A DNA stretch of 17,884 bases. Origin: an uncultured Clostridiaceae bacterium. GTDB lineage: Bacteria; Bacillota; Clostridia; TANB77; CAG-508. The notes beneath the pieces are model-generated. The model did no database searches. It was not told where the DNA came from and saw nothing but the letters and a program-made list of their open reading frames with translations. The DNA is taken from contig CAJKDR010000013.1 in the NCBI GenBank assembly GCA_905198755.1, positions 1 to 17,884 of the forward strand, written 5' to 3'. The translations under genes were made by a program, and so were the position numbers. Shown piece after piece: positions 1 through 12,832 of the stretch (the first letter of the stretch is position 1; every line of letters starts with the position of its first letter).

Positions 1-377
1 GATGTTGTACTCTTTAGACTATCATTTAAGTAGTATTTATACGTATTCGTGTCTGCTAATCCACTCTCTCCATCACTTGCTGATACACTTACTGTTATGC
101 TTTCTGCTGTCACTTCATCAACCACTAATTCTACTGTTGGTGCTTTCTTATCTAGTATTGTTATGCTTGCACTATTTCCCACATTCGTTCCATCTGTTAA
201 TCTTGCATATACTGTATCTCCATGATTTAAGTTGCCTACTGTTACTGGGCTATTTCCTTTTGTCCAACTTCCTGATATACCTCCTACTTGATACTCTATT
301 TGGAAACTTGTTGTCGTTGTTAATGTTATACTTGCTTTTCCACTACTCCATACTGCTGGGCTTGCTGTTATATTTCC
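1..377 (-). repeat. Super-repeat unit 3, partial: module A followed directly by an FN3-like module (KKAPTVELVVDEVTAESITVSVSASDGESGL...)
   Basis: Begins GNITASPAVWSSGKASITL...HGDTVYARLTDG like units 1 and 2, but skips modules B and A'. It is truncated by the window edge. Confidence 0.6.
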
Positions 378-3300
378 TGTTTCTAGCCCTTCTCCTGCTC
401 CTGGTACTGTTGCTGTTGTTTGATTTGTTAATGTTCCTATTCCTGTATTTCCTGCTTTATCTCCATTTACCTCTACTTTTATATCATATTTTGTTCCTTG
501 TGTTAGTCCTGTAAATGTGTATTGCGCATTTGATATATTTTCTGCTCCACTTGGCGCTTTGTAACTTTCGTCTCCTTCTGCACTCTTTTTAATGTAGTAT
601 GTGTATTTTGGACTTGTTACCATTCCAGTTTCATTATCTACTGCTTGGGCTGTTACTGTTATACTATTTGTTGTAGGAGACCCTTGTGCTGTTACTGTCA
701 CTACTGGTGCTATTGTGTCTTCTATTGTGATGTTTACTTCTGGTCCATATGTTGTTTGTCCTTCATTTGTTAAACATGCTTTTACTTTATCTCCATGATT
801 TAATCCTGTTATACTTGTTCCATTATATTCTTGCCAACTTCCTTCTCCATTTACCTTATATACAATTTTGTATTGGCTTTCTGTTGTTGCTAGCTTTAAT
901 GTTGCTGTTCCTCCACTCCATGTTATTTCTCCTTCTTGTGTTACTGTTCCTGTTATTCTGCTTATTGTTATTCCATTTGATACTGTCTCTGTTTTATTTC
1001 CTGCTACGTCTGTTGTTAGAACATGCAAATAGTATGTTCCTTCTGCATTACTATTTAAGGTTATTGTCTCTGGATTGGTTGTAAACTTTCCCGTATAGGC
1101 TGCTGTGTCCTCTGTTCCCATTGCTGATGAACTTGTATTCATTATCCATCCACTTTTTCCTATATCTACTCCACTTTTTATATCTTTGTGTGTTACTTTT
1201 GCTGTTATATTCTCTCCTATTAATATATTTGTTGTATTTAACTCTATTGTTGCCTTTTCTGGCACTTCATTGTCAATTATATTTATACTTGCATATTCTC
1301 CATAGTTTGTTCCGTCTGTTAGTCTTGCATATATTGTATCTCCATGTTTTAGGTTCGCTACTGTTCCGTTATTCTCTATATTTGTCCAACTGTTTGTTTC
1401 AGTTGCATTCTTTTGGTACTGTATCTGCAAACCTGTATTTGTAGCAATTGTTACACTTGCTTTTCCGTCTTGCCATGTTGCAGTTCCAAATGTTATTGCT
1501 CCTTGCTCTATTCCTCCTTCTCCTCCTGGTACTGTTCCTGTATTTTGATTTGCTAGAGTTCCTATTCCTGTATTTCCTGCAACATCTCCATTTACCTCTA
1601 CTTTTACATCATAACTTGTTCCTTGTGTTAAGTTTTTAAATGTATAGCTATTACTTGTTATATTGTTTGCATCACTTGGTGTTTGGTACTTTTCTTCTCC
1701 TTGGTTACTTTGCTTTATTTGGTATGTGTATGTTGAGTTTCCTTTCATTCCACTTTCCTTATCCTCTGCTGTTACTCTTACTGTTATACTATTTGTTGTA
1801 CTTCCTCCTGCTGTTACTGTTACTACTGGCGCCTTTTTATCTTCTATTGTGAATGTATTCTCTGGACCTGTTGTTGTTTCATTGGTTAGCCTTGCCGTTA
1901 TTTTATCTCCATGGTTTAATCCTGTGATTGCTCCATCATATTTTGTCCAACCGCCCTCATTTACTTTGTATTCTATTTCAAATTGGTCGTCTGCTGTCTC
2001 TAGTTCTATGCTTGCTTTTCCATCTCTCCATGTTGTGCTACCTTTTTGGCTTACTGTTCCTGATATTGCACTTATTGTTATTGCACTTGATACTGTTTCT
2101 GTTTTGTTTCCTGCATTATCCACAGTTAATGCATGTAGATAGTATGTTCCTGTTGCACTGCTGTTTAGTGTTATTGTTTCTGGGTTTGTAGTAAAGCTTC
2201 CTGTATATTGTGAAATTACATCTAAACCTGTTCCTACTTCTTCTGCGCTTTGTGTTAGTAACCATTTACTTTGACTGATATTTACTCCACTTTCTCTATC
2301 TATATGTGTTACTTTTGCTGTTATACTTTCTCCTATTAATACACTTTCTGGTGTTACTTCTATATTTGCTTTTTCTGGGGCTGTTGTGTCTTCTATTTTC
2401 TTGTTTTGTATCTCACTGTATTGCTCTCCATCTGTTAGCCTTGCATATACTGTGTCTCCATGGTTCACTCCTGTTACTACTCCACCTGTCACAGTTTTCC
2501 AGTTTCCTTCATCTGTTCCATTTATTTGATATTGTATTATATATTTACTTTCACTTGAAGTTATTGAAACATTTGCTGTTCCATCTTCTTGCCATTGTGC
2601 CTCTCCTATTGTTATTGTTCCTTCTGGTATTGGCTCTGGTTCTGGCTCTATTGTATTGGTTTCTACTGTATTTGTGTCTTCTACTGAGTTAGTTTCAACC
2701 GAATTTGTTTCCTCTCCTCCTGTTGAGTTTGTTTCTCCTGTACCTATTCCTGCAATTATGTCATTTATTTGGTCTGCTACATCATCTAGTTGCTCCTGCT
2801 CTGACTTTGTTGAATTTGCTGTTTGCTCTGCTGCCCATTTTGCTTGGTCTACTAAGCCTCCTTCTCCTAGTGCTACATTTATTGTTACTGCTGCTAATAT
2901 TATCATTATTACTACTGTTAGTATTAGCGCTAATAATGTTATTCCTTTCTCATTTGCACACAAAAAGGATAGATTATTTTGAAAAAAACCTTTGCCTTTT
3001 TTACATCGTTTTTTTCCATAATCCATCCTTTTATTTATATTTCTTACTATATTTTCTATGTTATTTTTATTTTTTTCTATAGATACATATGATACTGCTC
3101 CACCTGATGTTAATTCTTGAAATTCTCCTTCTAATTTTAATCTTTCAATTGTATCAATTTTATCTGGTTCATTCATATAATAAGATTTTTTATAATATCC
3201 TTTATCTGTAACATTTTTTATTGTACCAAATTTTTCTTTATCAGTTTCAGCAAATTTACTTAAAACATGTTTAGATTCTGTAGCATATACATTAAAGCCT

Positions 3301-4832
3301 ATTCCAGTATCCTTCTGCCATTCTTTAGTCTTTGCTTCTAATTTTTTTAATACTTTTATTGCAAAAGTATAACCTTCTTCTTCATCTATTCCTTTTTCTT
3401 TTACAACTCTTGATAGTTCATCTAACCCTACATATCCTAATGATAATGTTGAGTATTTTTTCATTAACAAATCATCGATTTTGTCATTCTTATTTATTCT
3501 TGATATTGCACCATGTTGCCAATGAATTGGGCTAATATTAGAATTTATTCCAAGTAAAGCATAATGTCTGCACATTAGTGCCTCTTTACACAATTCCAAT
3601 TTTTCATCAAGCATTTCCCAGAATTTTTCCTCATCACCATCTGCAATTAGTCCTATTTGTACAAGATTAATTGTAACAACTCCCTGATTAAATTGACCTT
3701 CATTTAAAAATTTTGCTTTTTCCCCAGAAGCATAGCTTGGAGAAGATCTTTTCAAAGTACATTTTATAGCTAATTTTGTTAAGTAATCATATTCTCCTCC
3801 AGATAAATTATTTAATTCATCAAGCACATAAATAAGCTCTGGAAAATGAGGTACTACGAATTCATCATCTTCATTTTTCATACCATTATATGTTTGATTA
3901 AGTACTTCTTCTATTATTATTGAATTTTCTTTTAAATATTCATCATCCTTATTTAACTTTAATATTAATGCAACTTTTGGTGGTTTTCCTGTTGTAGTCA
4001 TTAAAGTATTTATTTGATACAATAATGTTTGAACTCCCGCTTTTATTTCTTTTTTTAAAATATTATTTGAAATTTCAGTTATTGAATTTTCATTCAAGTC
4101 TGATTCATATATCTCTTTTAATTGTTCTTCTATTTTTTTATAACTTTTTTCTATATATTTTCCCAAATGAGATAAATCTACATATTGTTTTCCATATTGA
4201 TTACTAGCTACAGTTGCAATAATTTGTGTTGTTAAAATACATGCAACTTGAAAATTTTTTGGTGGATCTATTCTCATTCCATTTATTACAGTACCATTAT
4301 CTAGCATATCTCCTATATTAATAAAAGACGTATTAAATATCGGTTGTACAAAATAGTCTGCATTATGAAAATATAAAACGCCATCTTCATAAGCCTTAGT
4401 TATTTTTTCTGGAAGCAATAATCTTTTTGTTAAATCTCTAGAAACTTCTCCTGCAATATAATTTCTTTGTGTTGATGCAAGTACTGATGTGCTTTCTTCT
4501 TGTTCTTTATTATTTTTTCTAATTAAGCCTAATATTGATTCGTCTGTAGTATTAGATTTTCTAACTAAAGCTCTCGTATATCTATATACTATATATTTTT
4601 TAGCTAATTCATATTTATCTAATTCCATTAATTTCTGTTCTATTACATCTTGAATATCTTCAACAAGCATTCTTTTTTTCCCCAATGCCTCAATGTAATT
4701 AGTTATATCTTTAATCTCATCTTTTGATGCTCTTTTTTCTGGAATAACCTCATTATTTGCTTTATTTATTGCAATTGCTATTTTTTGTTTGTCATAATCT
4801 ACAGCTCTTCCATCTCTTTTTATTACTTTCAT
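1..4832 (-). CDS. Chimeric ORF, 3' end outside window: ATP-cone + catalytically degenerate NrdD-like domain fused in frame to a basic segment, a pilin-like hydrophobic anchor and a repeat-rich Ig/FN3-like surface region
   Basis: Hand translation of the minus strand. ATG at 4832-4830 is preceded by an in-frame TGA (4835-4833) and by GGAG about 10 nt upstream. The frame (plus-strand triplets starting at coordinates divisible by 3) was checked codon by codon at 4832-4741, 4261-4382, 3661-3780, 2820-3240, 2619-2651 and 3-59, with no stop or frame change. A looser full-length pass also found no stop. The ORF track reports no minus-strand ORF here, as expected for a frame with no stop in the window. 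The N-terminus MKVIKRDGRAVDYDKQKIAIAINKANNEV... is clearly homologous to the adjacent NrdD. Confidence 0.8.
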   Translation of the reverse strand, partial: MKVIKRDGRAVDYDKQKIAIAINKANNEVIPEKRASKDEIKDITNYIEALGKKRMLVEDIQDVIEQKLMELDKYELAKKYIVYRYTRALVRKSNTTDESILGLIRKNNKEQEESTSVLASTQRNYIAGEVSRDLTKRLLLPEKITKAYEDGVLYFHNADYFVQPIFNTSFINIGDMLDNGTVINGMRIDPPKNFQVACILTTQIIATVASNQYGKQYVDLSHLGKYIEKSYKKIEEQLKEIYESDLNENSITEISNNILKKEIKAGVQTLLYQINTLMTTTGKPPKVALILKLNKDDEYLKENSIIIEEVLNQTYNGMKNEDDEFVVPHFPELIYVLDELNNLSGGEYDYLTKLAIKCTLKRSSPSYASGEKAKFLNEGQFNQGVVTINLVQIGLIADGDEEKFWEMLDEKLELCKEALMCRHYALLGINSNISPIHWQHGAISRINKNDKIDDLLMKKYSTLSLGYVGLDELSRVVKEKGIDEEEGYTFAIKVLKKLEAKTKEWQKDTGIGFNVYATESKHVLSKFAETDKEKFGTIKNVTDKGYYKKSYYMNEPDKIDTIERLKLEGEFQELTSGGAVSYVSIEKNKNNIENIVRNINKRMDYGKKRCKKGKGFFQNNLSFLCANEKGITLLALILTVVIMIILAAVTINVALGEGGLVDQAKWAAEQTANSTKSEQEQLDDVADQINDIIAGIGTGETNSTGGEETNSVETNSVEDTNTVETNTIEPEPEPIPEGTITIGEAQWQEDGTANVSITSSESKYIIQYQINGTDEGNWKTVTGGVVTGVNHGDTVYARLTDGEQYSEIQNKKIEDTTAPEKANIEVTPESVLIGESITAKVTHIDRESGVNISQSKWLLTQSAEEVGTGLDVISQYTGSFTTNPETITLNSSATGTYYLHALTVDNAGNKTETVSSAITISAISGTVSQKGSTTWRDGKASIELETADDQFEIEYKVNEGGWTKYDGAITGLNHGDKITARLTNETTTGPENTFTIEDKKAPVVTVTAGGSTTNSITVRVTAEDKESGMKGNSTYTYQIKQSNQGEEKYQTPSDANNITSNSYTFKNLTQGTSYDVKVEVNGDVAGNTGIGTLANQNTGTVPGGEGGIEQGAITFGTATWQDGKASVTIATNTGLQIQYQKNATETNSWTNIENNGTVANLKHGDTIYARLTDGTNYGEYASINIIDNEVPEKATIELNTTNILIGENITAKVTHKDIKSGVDIGKSGWIMNTSSSAMGTEDTAAYTGKFTTNPETITLNSNAEGTYYLHVLTTDVAGNKTETVSNGITISRITGTVTQEGEITWSGGTATLKLATTESQYKIVYKVNGEGSWQEYNGTSITGLNHGDKVKACLTNEGQTTYGPEVNITIEDTIAPVVTVTAQGSPTTNSITVTAQAVDNETGMVTSPKYTYYIKKSAEGDESYKAPSGAENISNAQYTFTGLTQGTKYDIKVEVNGDKAGNTGIGTLTNQTTATVPGAGEGLETGNITASPAVWSSGKASITLTTTTSFQIEYQVGGISGSWTKGNSPVTVGNLNHGDTVYARLTDGTNVGNSASITILDKKAPTVELVVDEVTAESITVSVSASDGESGLADTNTYKYYLNDSLKSTT
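378..1502 (-). repeat. Super-repeat unit 2 (375 aa), same A-B-A'-C module order as unit 1
   Basis: Colinear with unit 1 in the hand translation, roughly 55-65% identical by eye. The DNA differs at many synonymous sites, so the duplication is old. Confidence 0.7.
1503..2621 (-). repeat. Super-repeat unit 1 (373 aa): beta-sandwich module A, Ig-like module B, module A', FN3-like module C
   Basis: Units are anchored on a conserved Trp codon (cca at 2592-2594, 1473-1475 and 348-350; offsets 1119 and 1125 nt). Shared motifs are HGD(T/K)(V/I)xARLT, ITAKVTHxDxxSGV, FTTNPETITLNS, GTYYLHxLTxDxAGNKTETVS, APVVTVTA and LTQGTxYDxKVEVNGDxAGNTGIGTL. Confidence 0.7.
2628..2738 (-). repeat. Low-complexity acidic linker with short tandem peptide repeats (GETNSTGGE-ETNSV-ETNSV-EDTNTV-ETNTI-EPEPEPIP)
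   Basis: Direct translation shows a repeated ETN(S/T)V motif followed by an (EP)3 run. The plus strand shows reiterated gtttc/gagtt motifs. Confidence 0.55.
2868..2942 (-). other. Hydrophobic signal-anchor or pilin-like N-terminal helix (ITLLALILTVVIMIILAAVTINVAL) preceded by a basic stretch (KKRCKKGKG...EKG)
   Basis: Translated codon by codon. A 25-residue hydrophobic run follows Lys/Arg-rich residues. The K-G-I-T-L-L-A-L pattern resembles a prepilin-type leader junction, but Ala replaces the canonical Glu at +5. Confidence 0.6.
3027..4832 (-). other. NrdD-like pseudoenzyme portion (aa 1-602): ATP-cone (about aa 1-95) plus truncated class III RNR core lacking active-site cysteines, Zn ribbon and glycyl-radical motif
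   Basis: Hand alignment to the NrdD at 5428..7614. 69 of the first 100 residues are identical, and colinear similarity continues to ...ELTSGGAVSYVSIEKNKNNIENIVRNINKR. NrdD HNCELVNL corresponds to FNTSFINI (Cys to Thr). NrdD KRMVPDY...PCMGCRSFLTPW...RFNQGVVTINL corresponds to KRSSPSYASGEKAKFLNEGQFNQGVVTINL, a deletion of about 40 aa that removes the Cys loop. There is no counterpart of CQEC...CPNC or RRTCGYIG. Confidence 0.8.
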
Positions 4833-4857
4833 TCACATTCTCCAAAAATAAATTTTA

Positions 4858-5349
4858 CTATTCAAATAAAACTACATTATTTGATTTTAAGCTTTTTTGT
4901 ACATCTATTACTCTTTGATTAGAAGACCCTTTCCATTTTAGAGTTGGATTATGTAGTTCATCTATATATTGTCCATCAACTAATACATCAACATATTTTA
5001 CTACTTCTTTATCTTTTAAATTTTTATCAAATAAGAAGCCTGACCAAATCCATAAATCTTTATTTGGATATTTTTTCTTAAATGCTTTGGCTAATTTAGT
5101 AGTCCCTTCAATATTTTTTGGATGCATTGGCTCGCCTCCCAAAATAGAAAGTCCTCTAATAGTTTCATTATCACATAATTCTAATACTCTATTTATTGTA
5201 TCATCTGTGAATTCTTTTCCTCCATTAAAATCATGTGTTTCAGAATTAAAACAATTTTTACAATTGAATGTGCACCCTTGCATAAAAATTGAAACTCTTA
5301 CTCCTGGTCCATTAGATATATCCATTTTTCTAATTTTATTATATCTCAT
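4858..5349 (-). CDS. nrdG: Anaerobic ribonucleoside-triphosphate reductase activating protein (radical SAM)
   Basis: 163-aa ORF with the CxxxCxxC cluster motif (QGCTFNCKNCFN) near the N-terminus. AAGGAGAG RBS upstream. It lies directly downstream of nrdD. Confidence 0.9.
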   Translation of the reverse strand: MRYNKIRKMDISNGPGVRVSIFMQGCTFNCKNCFNSETHDFNGGKEFTDDTINRVLELCDNETIRGLSILGGEPMHPKNIEGTTKLAKAFKKKYPNKDLWIWSGFLFDKNLKDKEVVKYVDVLVDGQYIDELHNPTLKWKGSSNQRVIDVQKSLKSNNVVLFE

Positions 5350-5427: not shown

Positions 5428-7614
5428 TTATTCGTCATCTTTATTATCTAAATGTAATACTCTTTCTTTTATTTCTTGTGTTCTACCTTTATTCCAGAAT
5501 TGGCTTCCAATATATCCACAAGTTCTTCTTGCAACATTTAGAGTGTCATGATTTCTATTACCACAATTTGGGCAATACCATTCTAAATTATCATCTATTA
5601 ATATTTCACCATCAAATCCACATTCTTGACAATAGTCAGATTTTGTATTTAATTCTGCATACATGATATTATCATAAATAAATTTTATAACTTCTATAAC
5701 AGCATCTACATTATCTTGTAAATTTGATGTTTCAATATATGATATAGCACCACCTGGTGATAATCTTTGAAATTCACTTTCTAATTTTAATTTTTTAAAT
5801 GCATCTATTTCTTCAAATACAGGTACATGATATGAATTAGTAATATAATCTCTATCTGTTATTCCTTTTATTGTACCAAATCTTTGTCTTAAGCATTTAG
5901 AAAACTTATATGTTGTGCTTTCGATTGGTGTACCATAAACACTATAATCAATTTTTTCTTCTTCTTTCCATTTATTACATTTATCATTTAATTTTTGCAT
6001 TACTTCTAAAGCAAATTCTTTTCCATCACCATTATCTGTATGGCTATGTCCTGTCATATATTTTACGCATTCATATAATCCTGCATATCCTAATGATAAT
6101 GTAGAGTATCCATCATGTAATAATTTGTGAATACTTTCACCTTTTTTCAATCTAGCTAATGCTCCATTTTGCCATAATATTGGTGCAACATCACTAGTAG
6201 CCTTAGCTAATCTTTCATGTCTAGCTTTTAAAGCTTTATGACATAATTCTAATCTTTGTTCATAGATTTCCCAAAATTTATCTTTATCTTGTGATGAAGA
6301 TAAAGCAACATCAACTAAGTTTATAGTTACAACACCTTGATTAAATCTACCATAATATTTTCCTTTTCCTTCAACATAATCTAATGCATTTGAAGGATTG
6401 CCTTTTGTTGTCCATGGAGTTAAGAAACTTCTACATCCCATACAAGGATAAGCATCTCCTTGTCCCCATTGATTTATTTTAGTTTCTTTCATTATTTTCT
6501 CTGAAATATAATCAGGAACCATTCTTTTAGCAGTACATTTTGCTGCAAGTTGTGTTAAATACCAATATTTTGAACCTTCCTTAATGTTGTCTTCTTCCAA
6601 AACATATAAAAGTTTTGGAAATGCTGGTGTAATATAAACACCTTTTGAATTTTTAAATCCTAGTATTCTTTGATTTAAAAATTCTTCTATAATCATTGCA
6701 AGTTCATCTTTATATTCATCTGTTTCTCCTAAGTACATACAAACAGATAAGAATGGTGCTTGTCCATTAGTATTTGTCATAGAATTTACTTGGTAATTGA
6801 ATGTTTGAACACCATCAGCAACTTCTTTCTTAGTATCTTCCATGGCAAATTTTTTGCATTGTTCATCAGATAAATTTCTATTCTTATATTTTGCGTAAAA
6901 TTTATTATAACTATCTCTTACAAAAGGAGCTAAGTGTGATAATGTAACTGTACATCCACCATAACTTGATGAAGTAACAGCTAAAATTATTTGTGTTGCT
7001 ATTGTCATAGCAGTTAAAAATCTATGAGGTTTTTCTATCATTACTCCATTTATTAGGGTACCATTTTGTAGCATGTCTTCTAAGTTTACTAATTCACAGT
7101 TGTGTAAAGCATTTTGGCTAAAATAATCCATATCATGGAAATGAATTATGCCTTCATCGTGTGCTTTTACAACATCTTCTGGTAATAAGAATCTTCTAGC
7201 AATATCTGTACTTGTTATTCCAGCTAAATAATCTCTTTGTGTTGTTACAACTTTTGCATTTTTATTTGAATTTTCAGTATTCCAATATTCACTTTCTCCA
7301 TCAATTAATTCTTTTATTGATTGATCTGTTGTATTTGCTTTTCTTACTAATTCTCTTGTATAACGATATGTAATATATTTTTTAGCAAGATTATACTTTT
7401 CAAATTCCATTAATTTTTTTTCGATTATATCTTGTATATCTTCTACTAATAATCTAGGTTTTCTTAAATCTTCAATATAATTAATAATCTCTTTAATTTG
7501 TTCTTTTGAAGCCTTATCTCTTTTTGAAACTTCTTCGTTAGCTTTACTTATTGCTACTCTAATTTTTTCTGGATCATAGTCTACAATTGTTCCGTCTCTT
7601 TTAATGATTTTCAT
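5428..7614 (-). CDS. nrdD: Anaerobic (class III) ribonucleoside-triphosphate reductase
   Basis: 728-aa ORF with an N-terminal ATP-cone, Cys loop PCMGCRSF, C-terminal Zn ribbon CQEC...CPNC and glycyl-radical motif RRTCGYIG. AGGGGG RBS. Confidence 0.95.
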   Translation of the reverse strand: MKIIKRDGTIVDYDPEKIRVAISKANEEVSKRDKASKEQIKEIINYIEDLRKPRLLVEDIQDIIEKKLMEFEKYNLAKKYITYRYTRELVRKANTTDQSIKELIDGESEYWNTENSNKNAKVVTTQRDYLAGITSTDIARRFLLPEDVVKAHDEGIIHFHDMDYFSQNALHNCELVNLEDMLQNGTLINGVMIEKPHRFLTAMTIATQIILAVTSSSYGGCTVTLSHLAPFVRDSYNKFYAKYKNRNLSDEQCKKFAMEDTKKEVADGVQTFNYQVNSMTNTNGQAPFLSVCMYLGETDEYKDELAMIIEEFLNQRILGFKNSKGVYITPAFPKLLYVLEEDNIKEGSKYWYLTQLAAKCTAKRMVPDYISEKIMKETKINQWGQGDAYPCMGCRSFLTPWTTKGNPSNALDYVEGKGKYYGRFNQGVVTINLVDVALSSSQDKDKFWEIYEQRLELCHKALKARHERLAKATSDVAPILWQNGALARLKKGESIHKLLHDGYSTLSLGYAGLYECVKYMTGHSHTDNGDGKEFALEVMQKLNDKCNKWKEEEKIDYSVYGTPIESTTYKFSKCLRQRFGTIKGITDRDYITNSYHVPVFEEIDAFKKLKLESEFQRLSPGGAISYIETSNLQDNVDAVIEVIKFIYDNIMYAELNTKSDYCQECGFDGEILIDDNLEWYCPNCGNRNHDTLNVARRTCGYIGSQFWNKGRTQEIKERVLHLDNKDDE

Positions 7615-7644: not shown

Positions 7645-7692
7645 ATTATATCTCAAAAAATAATATAAAAAAGTTGCAATTGCAACTTTTTT
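7645..7692 (-). promoter_or_regulatory. Putative nrdD promoter: -10 TATAAT (7650-7645) with a perfect 26-bp palindrome AAAAAAGTTGCAATTGCAACTTTTTT (7667-7692) centred about 41.5 bp upstream of the predicted start
   Basis: The palindrome was verified base by base and is centred between 7679 and 7680. No acceptable -35 lies at 16-18 bp from the -10. This geometry is typical of class II activator-dependent promoters. Confidence 0.5.
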
Positions 7693-7879: not shown

Positions 7880-7909
7880 GTTGCAATTGCAACTTTTTAG
7901 TGATATAAT
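7880..7909 (+). promoter_or_regulatory. Promoter of the Crp/Fnr-family gene: -35 TTGCAA (7881-7886), 17-bp spacer, extended -10 TGaTATAAT (7901-7909), with the -35 embedded in the palindrome GTTGCAATTGCAAC (7880-7893)
   Basis: Near-consensus hexamers with exact 17-bp spacing. AAGGAG RBS at 7926-7931 and ATG at 7939. The 14-bp palindrome is identical to the core of the 7667-7692 element. Confidence 0.65.
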
Positions 7910-7938: not shown

Positions 7939-8571
7939 ATGAGAACAAATTTTAATATAGAAGATTTTTCAAATAAATTATTAAATTCTTGTGATAAAGT
8001 ACAATTAAAAACTTTTGAAAAAAATGAAATTGTAACAACATATATTATAAATAGAAATCAAGTTTGTATTGTTTTAAATGGATCAGCAGACTTAATGAGA
8101 TATGACTTTAATGGTAATCAAACAATTGTTGAAAAGTTCAATAAATTTGATGTATTTGGTGAAATTTTTTATCAAATAAATACTAATAACGAATTATTTG
8201 TAATTGCTAAAGAAAAATCTAAAATATTAATTTTTAATTATGATATATTTGAAAAAAAATGTAAAAAAAATTGTAAGATGCATGAAGAATTATTAATAGG
8301 ATTACCAAACTTAGTTCTAACAAAAGTATCAGACTTAAACTTAAGAATAGAATTGCTATCTAAGAAAACAATAAGAGATAAACTAATCTCTTATTTTAGA
8401 ATATTATCAGAAAAAAATTTTAGTAAAACCTTTACTCTTCCCCTTAGTTTAACAGATTTAGCTGATTATCTAAGTGTTGATAGAAGTGCTATGATGAGAG
8501 AAATAAAAAGCTTAAAAAATGAGGGTTTTATAAAAAAATCAGATAAAAATAAAATAACATTATTAAGTTAA
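7939..8571 (+). CDS. Crp/Fnr-family transcriptional regulator
   Basis: 210-aa ORF with an N-terminal cNMP-binding-like beta-roll region (…FDVFGEIF…) and a C-terminal HTH (LTDLADYLSVDRSAMMREIKSLKNEGFI). It is divergent from nrdD. Confidence 0.8.
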   Translation: MRTNFNIEDFSNKLLNSCDKVQLKTFEKNEIVTTYIINRNQVCIVLNGSADLMRYDFNGNQTIVEKFNKFDVFGEIFYQINTNNELFVIAKEKSKILIFNYDIFEKKCKKNCKMHEELLIGLPNLVLTKVSDLNLRIELLSKKTIRDKLISYFRILSEKNFSKTFTLPLSLTDLADYLSVDRSAMMREIKSLKNEGFIKKSDKNKITLLS

Positions 8572-11954: not shown

Positions 11955-12545
11955 CTAATTTCTCCTCTTGCTAATAGCTAAACCGTCTCCTATTTCTAAA
12001 ATTTCTGTTATTAAATTTGGATCTTCTGTTGTTTCTTTTATATATTCTCGTAAATTTCTTACAGCGGTTCTTTGTTTATGTTTATTATAATCGCTCATAA
12101 CATACCCCTTATATAATATGTTATCAGCTAATATTATACCATCATTTTTTAATAATCTTAAAGCATGTTCTAAAAAAATAGGATATTTCCCTTTTGCAGC
12201 ATCTATAAATACCATATCATATTTTTTATTAATAGTTGGTAATATTTCAACTGCATCTCCTGAAATTATATTAATTTGTTTTTCTACCTCTGCTTTTTTT
12301 ACATTTATTTTTGCTTCTTCTATTCTTTGTTCATCTCTCTCAATTGTATCAATAATTCCATCATCGCTTAAAAACTTAGTAAAACAGATAGCAGAATAGC
12401 CAACAGCAGTACCTATTTCTAGAATACTGCTTATTTTTTTGTCATTATATAATTCATAAATATATTCCAATGTGTCATCCATTATAATTGGTATATGATT
12501 TTCTAAAGCTTTTTCTTTTATTTCTAATAGTGCTATTTTATTCAC
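11955..12545 (-). CDS. SAM-dependent O-methyltransferase, TrmR/YrrM-like
   Basis: 196-aa ORF with a GTG start and a class I methyltransferase glycine-rich motif (ILEIGTAVGYSA) followed by ...MVFIDAAK.... It neighbours the U32 gene. Confidence 0.75.
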   Translation of the reverse strand: MNKIALLEIKEKALENHIPIIMDDTLEYIYELYNDKKISSILEIGTAVGYSAICFTKFLSDDGIIDTIERDEQRIEEAKINVKKAEVEKQINIISGDAVEILPTINKKYDMVFIDAAKGKYPIFLEHALRLLKNDGIILADNILYKGYVMSDYNKHKQRTAVRNLREYIKETTEDPNLITEILEIGDGLAISKRRN

Positions 12546-12550
12546 GATTT

Positions 12551-12832
12551 TTACCTTTCTTCTCTTTCAAAATGGTAATCAACATATGTTTCAAAAAAAC
12601 TTTTAACGGTTGAATTTGTATATGTTTTCAATAAATATGAGATAATTTCCTCTTTACTATGGTGCTTTCTTATCATTCTTTTTATATCTTCATGTATTCT
12701 TCTTCGTTCTATGCTGTCAGGACTTGTAGGAATTTTATGCGACTCAGAGATTCCAATTTCATTATATCTTCCACCTTTATAAGAAGAGGTCTTGTTTAAT
12801 CTTTCAACTCCTGATTTTAAATATGTTTTCAT
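12551..12832 (-). CDS. Hypothetical basic protein (93 aa)
   Basis: The ORF is tightly packed between typA (stop 12841; GGAG RBS overlaps the typA stop) and the methyltransferase (5-nt gap). I recognise no motif. Confidence 0.55.
   Translation of the reverse strand: MKTYLKSGVERLNKTSSYKGGRYNEIGISESHKIPTSPDSIERRRIHEDIKRMIRKHHSKEEIISYLLKTYTNSTVKSFFETYVDYHFEREER

Follow-up and report, generated by a model that had tools for sequence, protein, structure and literature searches.

Why should a bacterium that already encodes a complete anaerobic ribonucleotide reductase (RNR) keep, directly behind it, a second gene for the catalytic subunit from which the catalytic parts are missing? The question is raised by contig CAJKDR010000013.1 of an uncultured Clostridiaceae bacterium, analyzed here over a stretch of 17,884 nucleotides (the window). 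Three genes of interest lie in order on its minus strand: nrdD, nrdG, and a third gene that we call nrdD'. The first (5428..7614, minus strand) encodes a bona fide class III RNR catalytic subunit of 728 aa with Pfam ATP-cone, NRDD, and Gly_radical matches. Its conserved Cys (HNCELVNL), finger loop (PCMGCRSF), Zn-ribbon, and RRTCGYIG motif are all present, and it passes both NCBIfam equivalog cut-offs (887 > 657 for NF006732 and 464 > 326 for TIGR02487). The second (4858..5349, minus strand) encodes the radical S-adenosylmethionine (SAM) activase, a 163-aa protein with Pfam Fer4_12 and Radical_SAM matches that scores 183 against TIGR02491 (NrdG; cut-off 126). An earlier, sequence-only reading of the window took the third gene for a pseudoenzyme that had kept its ATP-cone and lost all radical chemistry. 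As judged from its sequence, nrdD' is indeed a real, conserved class III RNR pseudoenzyme, for which we infer a function: we lean toward the reading that this third gene of the operon encodes a dead NrdD retained as a nucleotide-binding pseudo-subunit, which would act on the active NrdD or buffer dATP.

The minus-strand frame that opens at the ATG at 4832 has no stop over 4832..3027, where the other five frames hold 27-79 stops. Its codons 1-599 (3036..4832, minus strand) are homologous to a 610-aa truncated NrdD paralogue of related strains. By BLASTP the product is 43% identical to the adjacent NrdD (7614..5428) over 646 columns (E=8e-177), and its Pfam NRDD match (PF13597, E=2.6e-103) covers profile positions 7-495 of 562, with no match to Gly_radical (PF01228) in the Pfam search. 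The alignment of every nrdD' sequence stops before the RRTCGY(I/L)G glycyl-radical motif, and the Zn-ribbon CxxC...CxxC is missing from nrdD', its orthologues ending ...YVEFKL*, right before the first Cys. In the part that is retained, our alignments place Thr168 (codon ACG, 4329..4331, minus strand) at the conserved Cys of N-C-(C/E), such that HNCELVNL reads FNTSFINI; we take this Cys to be the equivalent of Cys79 of T4 NrdD. The finger loop is reduced to a deletion scar, K374-F-L-N-E378 (3699..3713, minus strand). The gap amounts to 41 residues relative to the neighboring NrdD, PCMGCRSF falling within it, and to about 26 relative to the 708-aa lineage from which, as described below, nrdD' derives. 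The thiyl-radical Cys of (P/C)MGCRSF, its position set by alignment of the PMGCRSF motif and presumably corresponding to T4 Cys290, is lost with the loop. The Cys-to-Thr change, the loop deletion, and the loss of CQEC/CPNC and RRTCGYIG had all been claimed from the sequence alone, and each was borne out.

Two lesions go beyond that account. The GTPAES loop, which on the basis of RNR structures we take to be the substrate-phosphate loop, is degenerate and reads ATESKH in the window protein (Y-A-T-E-S-K replacing Y-G-T-P-A-E; 3270..3287, minus strand). A four-residue deletion between codons 114 and 115 (4488..4493, minus strand) removes the NxN flap, an active-site element (PMC12662201) that reads ENSNKN in functional NrdDs. 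Changes of the finger-loop Cys, of G547, and of the GTPAES-loop Glu (E551K) are common to all nrdD' sequences, to which the window clade adds the loss of the N-C cysteine, the entire finger loop, and the NxN flap. L009, L010, P0041, and L039 carry R, E, K, or H in place of the finger-loop Cys, and the loop itself is deleted in the window clade. In keeping with these losses, nrdD' stays below both NCBIfam equivalog cut-offs (539 < 657 for NF006732 and 287 < 326 for TIGR02487), whereas a 708-aa NrdD (P0009) exceeds them with scores of 944 and 508. We conclude that nrdD' is a class III RNR paralogue that is catalytically dead and truncated at its C-terminus; in the window clade it can neither generate, hold, nor use a radical, nor can it bind substrate in the normal way. 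The notion that it is still an enzyme, using other cysteines and a GrcA-like glycyl-radical domain supplied in trans, could appeal to the retained barrel fold and to the adjoining nrdG, but we find it scarcely credible. No alternative cysteine or glycyl-radical motif could be aligned in nrdD' at or near the catalytic positions; it has lost the finger loop, the NxN flap, and the phosphate loop; the genes called beside nrdD' in the related loci examined encode ArsP_2 or beta-CASP proteins, none with a Gly_radical match; and the neighboring nrdG goes with the complete nrdD upstream of it.

Where nrdD' ends is less simple than the sequence-only reading supposed. Its claim of an intact frame of 602 codons stands as far as the absence of stops is concerned, but position 3027 is no gene end: there is no stop there, and at least 1610 codons can be read without one, as far as window position 3. 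It is missing from the list of open reading frames (ORFs) because it runs off the window edge; an alternative genetic code or a hidden stop was considered as the reason and rejected, as the ORF simply leaves the window. The continuation (MDYGKKRCKKGKGFFQNNLSFLCANEKGITLLALILTVVIMIILAAV... after ...NIVRNINKR; MDYGKKRCKKGKGFFQNNLSFLCANEKGITLLALIL...) has the N-terminus of a pilin-like protein and, behind it, three FN3-type repeat modules of about 1.1 kb each. Homology to orthologous loci stops at window position 3036 (codon 599). In ten related contigs nrdD' is 610 aa long (613 aa in L008) and ends ...NIYDNIGYVEFKL*, with a terminator hairpin behind it; the 610-aa orthologues, 94-99% identical, end ...NIVRNIYDNIGYVEFKL* and are followed by the terminator GGCGGAGTTTACTCCGCTTTTT and then by an ArsP_2 permease gene. 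Over 5.8 kb across the region, contig L094 matches the window with 99.6% identity, and it has the normal 610-aa end. The pilin-like gene in turn lies behind rplQ, unrelated to nrdD, in L092 (P0123), and shares with the window copy its MDY(R/G)KKR... start and the 29 nt that precede it; the homologues of the pilin-like part have independent starts. The two homologies overlap in the window by a stretch of exactly 20 nt, AAAATATAGTAAGAAATATA (3036..3055, minus strand), that occurs both at the nrdD' 3' end and in the sequence natively upstream of the pilin-like gene; this length equals k-1 for assemblers using k=21.

These observations bear on the possibility that the window strain makes a genuine fusion protein, with a cytosolic NrdD-like domain, a pilin-like transmembrane helix, and extracellular FN3 repeats. 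The continuous frame would allow it, and a topology with the N-terminus inside and the C-terminus outside is physically possible. We nevertheless judge such a protein very improbable, given a junction that lies within the 20 nt shared by both parental loci, the normal end plus terminator in L094 and nine other contigs, and the independent placement and starts of the pilin-like gene and its homologues. A 34-mer across the junction was not found in Joint Genome Institute (JGI) metagenome contigs, where the one close locus, L094, has the normal gene end, and of the 120 homologues listed for the pilin-like part, none contains an NRDD domain. A natural family of NrdD-pilin fusions was rejected on this last count and on the position of P0123 behind rplQ. 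Since L094 and nine other contigs end normally, the read-through is best regarded as specific to the window, arising either as a de Bruijn-graph chimera or by very recent illegitimate (microhomology) recombination; in either case, the window illustrates how an apparent giant fusion ORF can arise through a 20-nt shared sequence. The 610-aa form is the conserved gene; the window carries its codons 1-599, and the continuation past 3036 does not belong to it.

The sequence-only reading treated the second NrdD as a copy of the adjacent one, and in this it was mistaken. nrdD' shares 43-46% identity with the adjacent NrdD and the orthologues of the latter and 61-66% with the 708-aa NrdDs, a very large gut-Clostridia family with every catalytic motif. 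On these values we rejected a duplication of the adjacent nrdD, and nrdD' is the remnant of a second, 708-aa Clostridial NrdD lineage. Recent gene conversion, which had also been doubted earlier, is excluded by the same identity to the neighbor and by a best identity of 66% to any functional NrdD found. Genomes with the 708-aa family usually carry it in the order nrdD708-nrdG708; the nrdG of this pair shares only 41-51% identity with the one in the window. The order nrdD(719-728 aa)-nrdG-nrdD'(610-644 aa) recurs in L001, L003, L004, L007, L009, L010/L011, and L039, and four further contigs (L002, L005, L006, and L093) show nrdG-nrdD' only. Together the nrdD' genes fall into at least four lineages: the window clade (L001-L007 and L094; 610 aa), L009 (641 aa), L010/L011/L093 (642-644 aa), and L039, a GTDB representative metagenome-assembled genome (MAG; 630 aa). 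Their hosts form a small clade of low-GC, spore-forming, uncultured gut Clostridia; the window clade itself was not found among 80 GTDB species-representative loci, among the matches listed.

All nrdD' proteins end a few residues past a conserved Y(A/V/I)E(F/L), where the barrel would pass into the Zn-ribbon/glycyl-radical domain, and their ancestor was cut exactly at this boundary of the alpha/beta barrel. The nrdD' sequences are monophyletic in a neighbor-joining tree, in which they are placed next to the 708-aa family and the branches leading to the window clade and to L039 are long. The MAG L022 (3027-8127) holds two full-length nrdD genes of different lineages in tandem, of 729 and 708 aa, both with their motifs intact and with a single nrdG between them; this is presumably the ancestral state of the nrdD-nrdG-nrdD' operon. 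Elsewhere in the 708-aa family we found one frameshifted gene (L047) and two independent truncations at the same boundary (L089 and L090), both of them without an upstream nrdD-nrdG. The truncated gene of L089 (7900-8050) keeps both catalytic cysteines and is followed, after its stop, by a long perfect palindrome; the tail of the L090 gene (7500-7580), AEFKIKFSDM*, resembles the AELKISDL* of L010. No integrase, intron, or repeat signature was found at the nrdD' 3' ends, which carry a terminator only, and insertion of a mobile element or intron was rejected on that ground as the cause of the recurrent truncation. One contig departs from the usual arrangement: in L008 (1-760, P0005) nrdD' lies directly 3' of a different Crp-like gene with no nrdD-nrdG between them, and its ATP-cone matches neither nrdD' nor the 728-aa NrdD, the remainder being 97.7% identical to L001. 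Either the strain behind L008 is recombinant, or the contig is a chimera whose parts meet in the conserved cone region.

Is such a remnant maintained, or is it merely persisting? Within the window clade (Nei-Gojobori method, dS 0.10-0.29), the dN/dS ratio (omega) of nrdD' is 0.09-0.16. The adjacent nrdD has an omega of 0.01-0.08, nrdG about 0.02, four flanking genes 0.00-0.19, and a methyltransferase gene 0.12-0.47. Every domain of nrdD' stays below 0.31 within the clade, with 0.00-0.11 for the ATP-cone only and 0.07-0.30 for the barrel only. The deepest pairs (dS 0.23-0.26) differ by about 70-78 synonymous and 30-33 non-synonymous changes, and the departure from neutrality in the window clade is strong (Fisher p 1e-11 to 1e-33). 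In the second lineage for which the comparison was made (L010 against L093, dS 0.43), the nrdD' omega is 0.108, in the range of its neighbors. The dN/dS ratio among orthologues had been set beforehand as a test, and it lies well below 1 in both lineages. The purifying selection proposed in the sequence-only reading is thereby upheld. The constraint spans the whole protein (core omega 0.07-0.18) and is not restricted to the cone; ATP/dATP binding as the retained function we infer from the residues described below.

Neither in-frame stops nor frameshifts were found in the window nrdD' or in 13 related contigs from the four lineages. When the full-length copy of L022 was mutated neutrally over a quarter of the observed Jukes-Cantor distance (167 substitutions), it acquired about 11 in-frame stops, and none of 3000 replicates stayed open (P(no stop) <1/3000). 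The earlier argument that nrdD' is no decaying duplicate gains from both results, and its frame and amino-acid sequence are evidently kept by purifying selection. The distribution of changes along the protein is also informative. In an alignment of 79 NrdDs from both lineages that look functional, 273 columns reach a conservation of at least 97%; of these, 80 are altered in the window protein, 77 in L039, 36 in L009, and 31 in L010. By region, the window protein is altered at 15 of the 24 conserved columns around the finger loop and 10 of the 22 in the GTPAES-TNSYH region, at two of the 22 in the effector/dimer helices, and at none of the 40 in the ATP-cone, the best-preserved region, where each of five other nrdD' proteins likewise has no alteration.

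The main rival to a maintained function is slow decay under residual constraint. In this account nrdD' would be a redundant second nrdD that lost its C-terminal domain to a deletion and is being discarded, and its open frame and low dN/dS would reflect only residual or indirect constraint, such as avoidance of toxic misfolded fragments or the needs of operon expression, rather than a role of its own. Several observations weigh on its side and against a maintained pseudo-subunit. Between lineages, nrdD' has a dN of 0.24-0.27 and an omega of about 0.3, as compared with a dN of 0.02-0.14 and an omega of 0.03-0.15 for the comparison genes (nrdD, nrdG, crp, U32 peptidase, and typA); it has thus evolved 2-10 times faster than its neighbors overall yet is currently constrained, and the constraint is real but relaxed. 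The lesions are lineage-specific and progressive, a pattern expected of relaxed constraint or slow decay, and the independent truncations in L089 and L090 show that such remnants arise easily. If the window junction is real, moreover, its strain tolerates the loss of the native nrdD' C-terminus. Two cautions apply to the pseudo-subunit reading itself: the neighbor-joining tree groups long branches, which could in part be an artefact, and all known members of the family come from a handful of uncultured species. Decay is harder to reconcile with omega values similar to those of ordinary neighboring genes in both the window clade and L010/L093, with an ORF that is intact in every contig examined where the simulation predicts about 11 stops, and with the unaltered conserved columns of the cone, for which selection acting directly on the cone is the ready explanation. 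We regard slow decay as improbable.

The cone occupies codons 1-95 of nrdD' (4548..4832, minus strand; Pfam ATP-cone PF03477, E=4e-19). Over the first 100 residues it is identical to the neighboring NrdD at 69 positions, exactly the number that had been counted by hand in the sequence-only reading, and 25 of these 69 residues are encoded by different codons, as had also been noticed. Its identity to the cones of 708-type NrdDs is higher, at 78-83% versus 69% to the neighbor. The ATP/dATP ligands of StNrdD are K19, R20, K31, I32, K38, Q79, Y98, Y101, R105, and R109 (PMC12662201). By alignment with 9D3X, these ten positions correspond to K5, R6, K17, I18, K24, Q61, Y80, Y83, R87, and R91 of nrdD', all of them identical or equivalent to the StNrdD residues. 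At the effector site, the one residue checked, Q225 of StNrdD, is kept as Q203. An AlphaFold2 model of nrdD' (predicted local distance difference test 77, predicted template modeling score 0.69) has low confidence only in the cone-barrel connector (residues 85-138), and Foldseek matched it to class III RNR structures with a TM-score of about 0.7. From these residues and this model, nrdD' is predicted to fold like NrdD and would bind ATP/dATP in its cone and probably deoxyribonucleoside triphosphate (dNTP) effectors at the dimer interface.

The surroundings of the gene suggest with what it might act. A gap of 25 nt separates the nrdG stop from the nrdD' ATG at 4832, and a ribosome-binding site, GGAGAA (4838..4843, minus strand), was read in the sequence 5 nt 5' of the ATG. 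A terminator scan found no terminator-like site between the operon genes, the nrdG/nrdD' gap included, and in relatives the terminator stands immediately 3' of nrdD'. Judged by this position, nrdD' is likely co-transcribed with the nrdDG pair. We propose that the co-expressed nrdD' protein may act on the active NrdD, most plausibly through dATP/ATP-dependent hetero-oligomerization, by cone-cone contacts or at the dimer interface, that would tune NrdD activity, or else through buffering of dATP. A physical complex of nrdD' with NrdD is hypothesized from co-operonic placement, its sole support. What recommends the heteromer model is that, in recent structures, cone-cone contacts and oligomerization underlie the regulation of class III RNRs (PMC11226230, PMC12662201). 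A bolder version, in which nrdD' would be the first dedicated pseudo-subunit of a glycyl-radical enzyme and, through its intact ATP-cone and effector site, would form dATP/ATP-dependent hetero-oligomers with the phylogenetically distinct active NrdD of its operon and so reset the dATP-inhibition threshold of the latter, we regard as doubtful at present.

A protein of this kind might equally be imagined to work without touching NrdD, as a stand-alone sensor or sponge for ATP/dATP (and dNTPs) that buffers dATP or signals to some other partner. The intact cone and effector-site residues would serve such a role, constraint across the whole barrel suits a stable homodimer, and, with only 43-46% identity to the co-encoded NrdD, a heterodimer interface may be incompatible. 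The strict placement of nrdD' behind nrdD-nrdG in all syntenic lineages, however, suggests a functional link to the enzyme, and a stoichiometric sponge would be an expensive way to buffer nucleotides. We consider a contact-free sensor unlikely and retain the nucleotide-binding pseudo-subunit as the working interpretation; should its hetero-oligomer form be true, nrdD' would be an allosteric regulator made from a retired enzyme.

Several features of the flanking DNA were noted alongside. A Crp/Fnr-type regulator gene (7939..8571) lies upstream of nrdD and divergent from it, and a perfect 14-bp palindrome, GTTGCAATTGCAAC, occurs twice between the two genes (7880-7893 and 7673-7686). These copies, which the terminator scan scored as terminator-like hairpins, are candidate operators of the divergent regulator. 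The active nrdD has a dS of 0.40 between the window (5428-7614) and L001 (7225-9405), as against 0.02-0.10 for flanking genes on the same contigs and 0.026 for nrdD', and the L001 nrdD is nearer to that of the more distant L009 (97% aa identity); together these values point to exchange of nrdD alleles between species by recombination. At the O-methyltransferase gene (11955-12832), the N-terminus reads VNKIALLEIKEK where orthologues have MNINNLKIIKEK, omega is 0.39-0.47 relative to L001 and L003, and an extra 93-aa ORF (12551..12832) stands where the L001 spacer is only about 26 nt. We take this region to contain a small insertion or replacement that is apparently specific to the strain.

The DNA beyond the junction (1..3026, minus strand) holds the incomplete 5' part of a giant gene for a pilin-like, FN3-repeat surface protein, in frame with nrdD' only in the window. 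It encodes a linker rich in T, E, and N and a module of about 1.1 kb (~372 aa) that is repeated in tandem at least three times, the copies having 72-75% nucleotide identity and FN3-type matches, and its GC fraction is 0.36, versus 0.27 in the remaining window. The pilin-like N-terminus contains EKG/ITLLALILTVVIMIILAAV, with Ala at +5 where the class III signal peptide motif G/(F,I)TLxE, which in type IV pilin-like proteins precedes a hydrophobic helix, has Glu. No Pfam pilin domain was found in the ORF at 1..3026; JGI gives the name PilA to one distant homologue of the pilin-like part. In other contigs (P0190-P0204) the N-terminal 70 residues recur in front of C-terminal domains of quite another kind, as would be expected of a modular surface-protein family with one common anchor.

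Set against known systems, the nrdD' family amounts to a natural dissection of NrdD, in which the barrel, ATP-cone, and effector site are kept and the parts for radical chemistry are removed. It may for that reason offer a clean tool for the study of class III ATP-cone signaling, which has been structurally resolved only recently (PMC11226230, PMC12662201). It also carries a warning for annotation, as nrdD' genes are labeled 'anaerobic ribonucleoside-triphosphate reductase' by domain content and cannot, by the losses described above, be one. With the class III NrdDs of T4 (1H78), S. thermophilus (9D3X), and P. copri (8P23), nrdD' shares the ATP-cone with its ligands, the 10-stranded barrel, the effector-site Gln, and the operon with nrdG. 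It differs from functional NrdDs in being without the Zn-ribbon, glycyl-radical domain, both cysteines, finger loop, NxN flap, and phosphate loop.

Two bacterial proteins resemble nrdD' in part. NrdR, the transcriptional repressor of nrd operons, reads ATP/dATP through an ATP-cone and, like the role proposed here, regulates RNR by a cone without catalysis; unlike nrdD', it is small and has an N-terminal Zn-ribbon DNA-binding domain, whereas nrdD' has a full barrel and no DNA-binding domain. GrcA (YfiD), which supplies pyruvate formate-lyase with a glycyl-radical domain as a protein of its own, is an example of a glycyl-radical enzyme divided into separate barrel and radical-domain pieces. GrcA is the radical-domain piece, and nrdD' is the opposite one, a barrel that has also lost its catalytic cysteines. 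A full-text literature search found no description of a truncated or dead NrdD, and no dead paralogue with a real function for class III RNRs or for any other glycyl-radical enzyme.

Dead RNR paralogues with real functions are, however, known for class Ia. The betaherpesvirus R1 homologues (M45 of murine cytomegalovirus and UL45 of human cytomegalovirus) are large-subunit RNR homologues that have lost their catalytic residues and serve a non-catalytic role. They resemble nrdD' as dead RNR homologues that were retained and differ in their viral class Ia origin, their part in the control of host cell death, the absence of cone-centered conservation, and the absence of an operon with an active RNR. 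Yeast Rnr4 (Y4) is a dead but conserved paralogue of the class Ia small subunit Rnr2 that works only as the partner of its active paralogue. It belongs to the eukaryotes and to another RNR class, is a beta di-iron subunit, and forms a heterodimer that is proven, where that of nrdD' is hypothesized; as a conserved RNR paralogue minus its cofactor and catalytic residues, it is the best conceptual precedent for an RNR pseudo-subunit of the kind that we propose for nrdD'.

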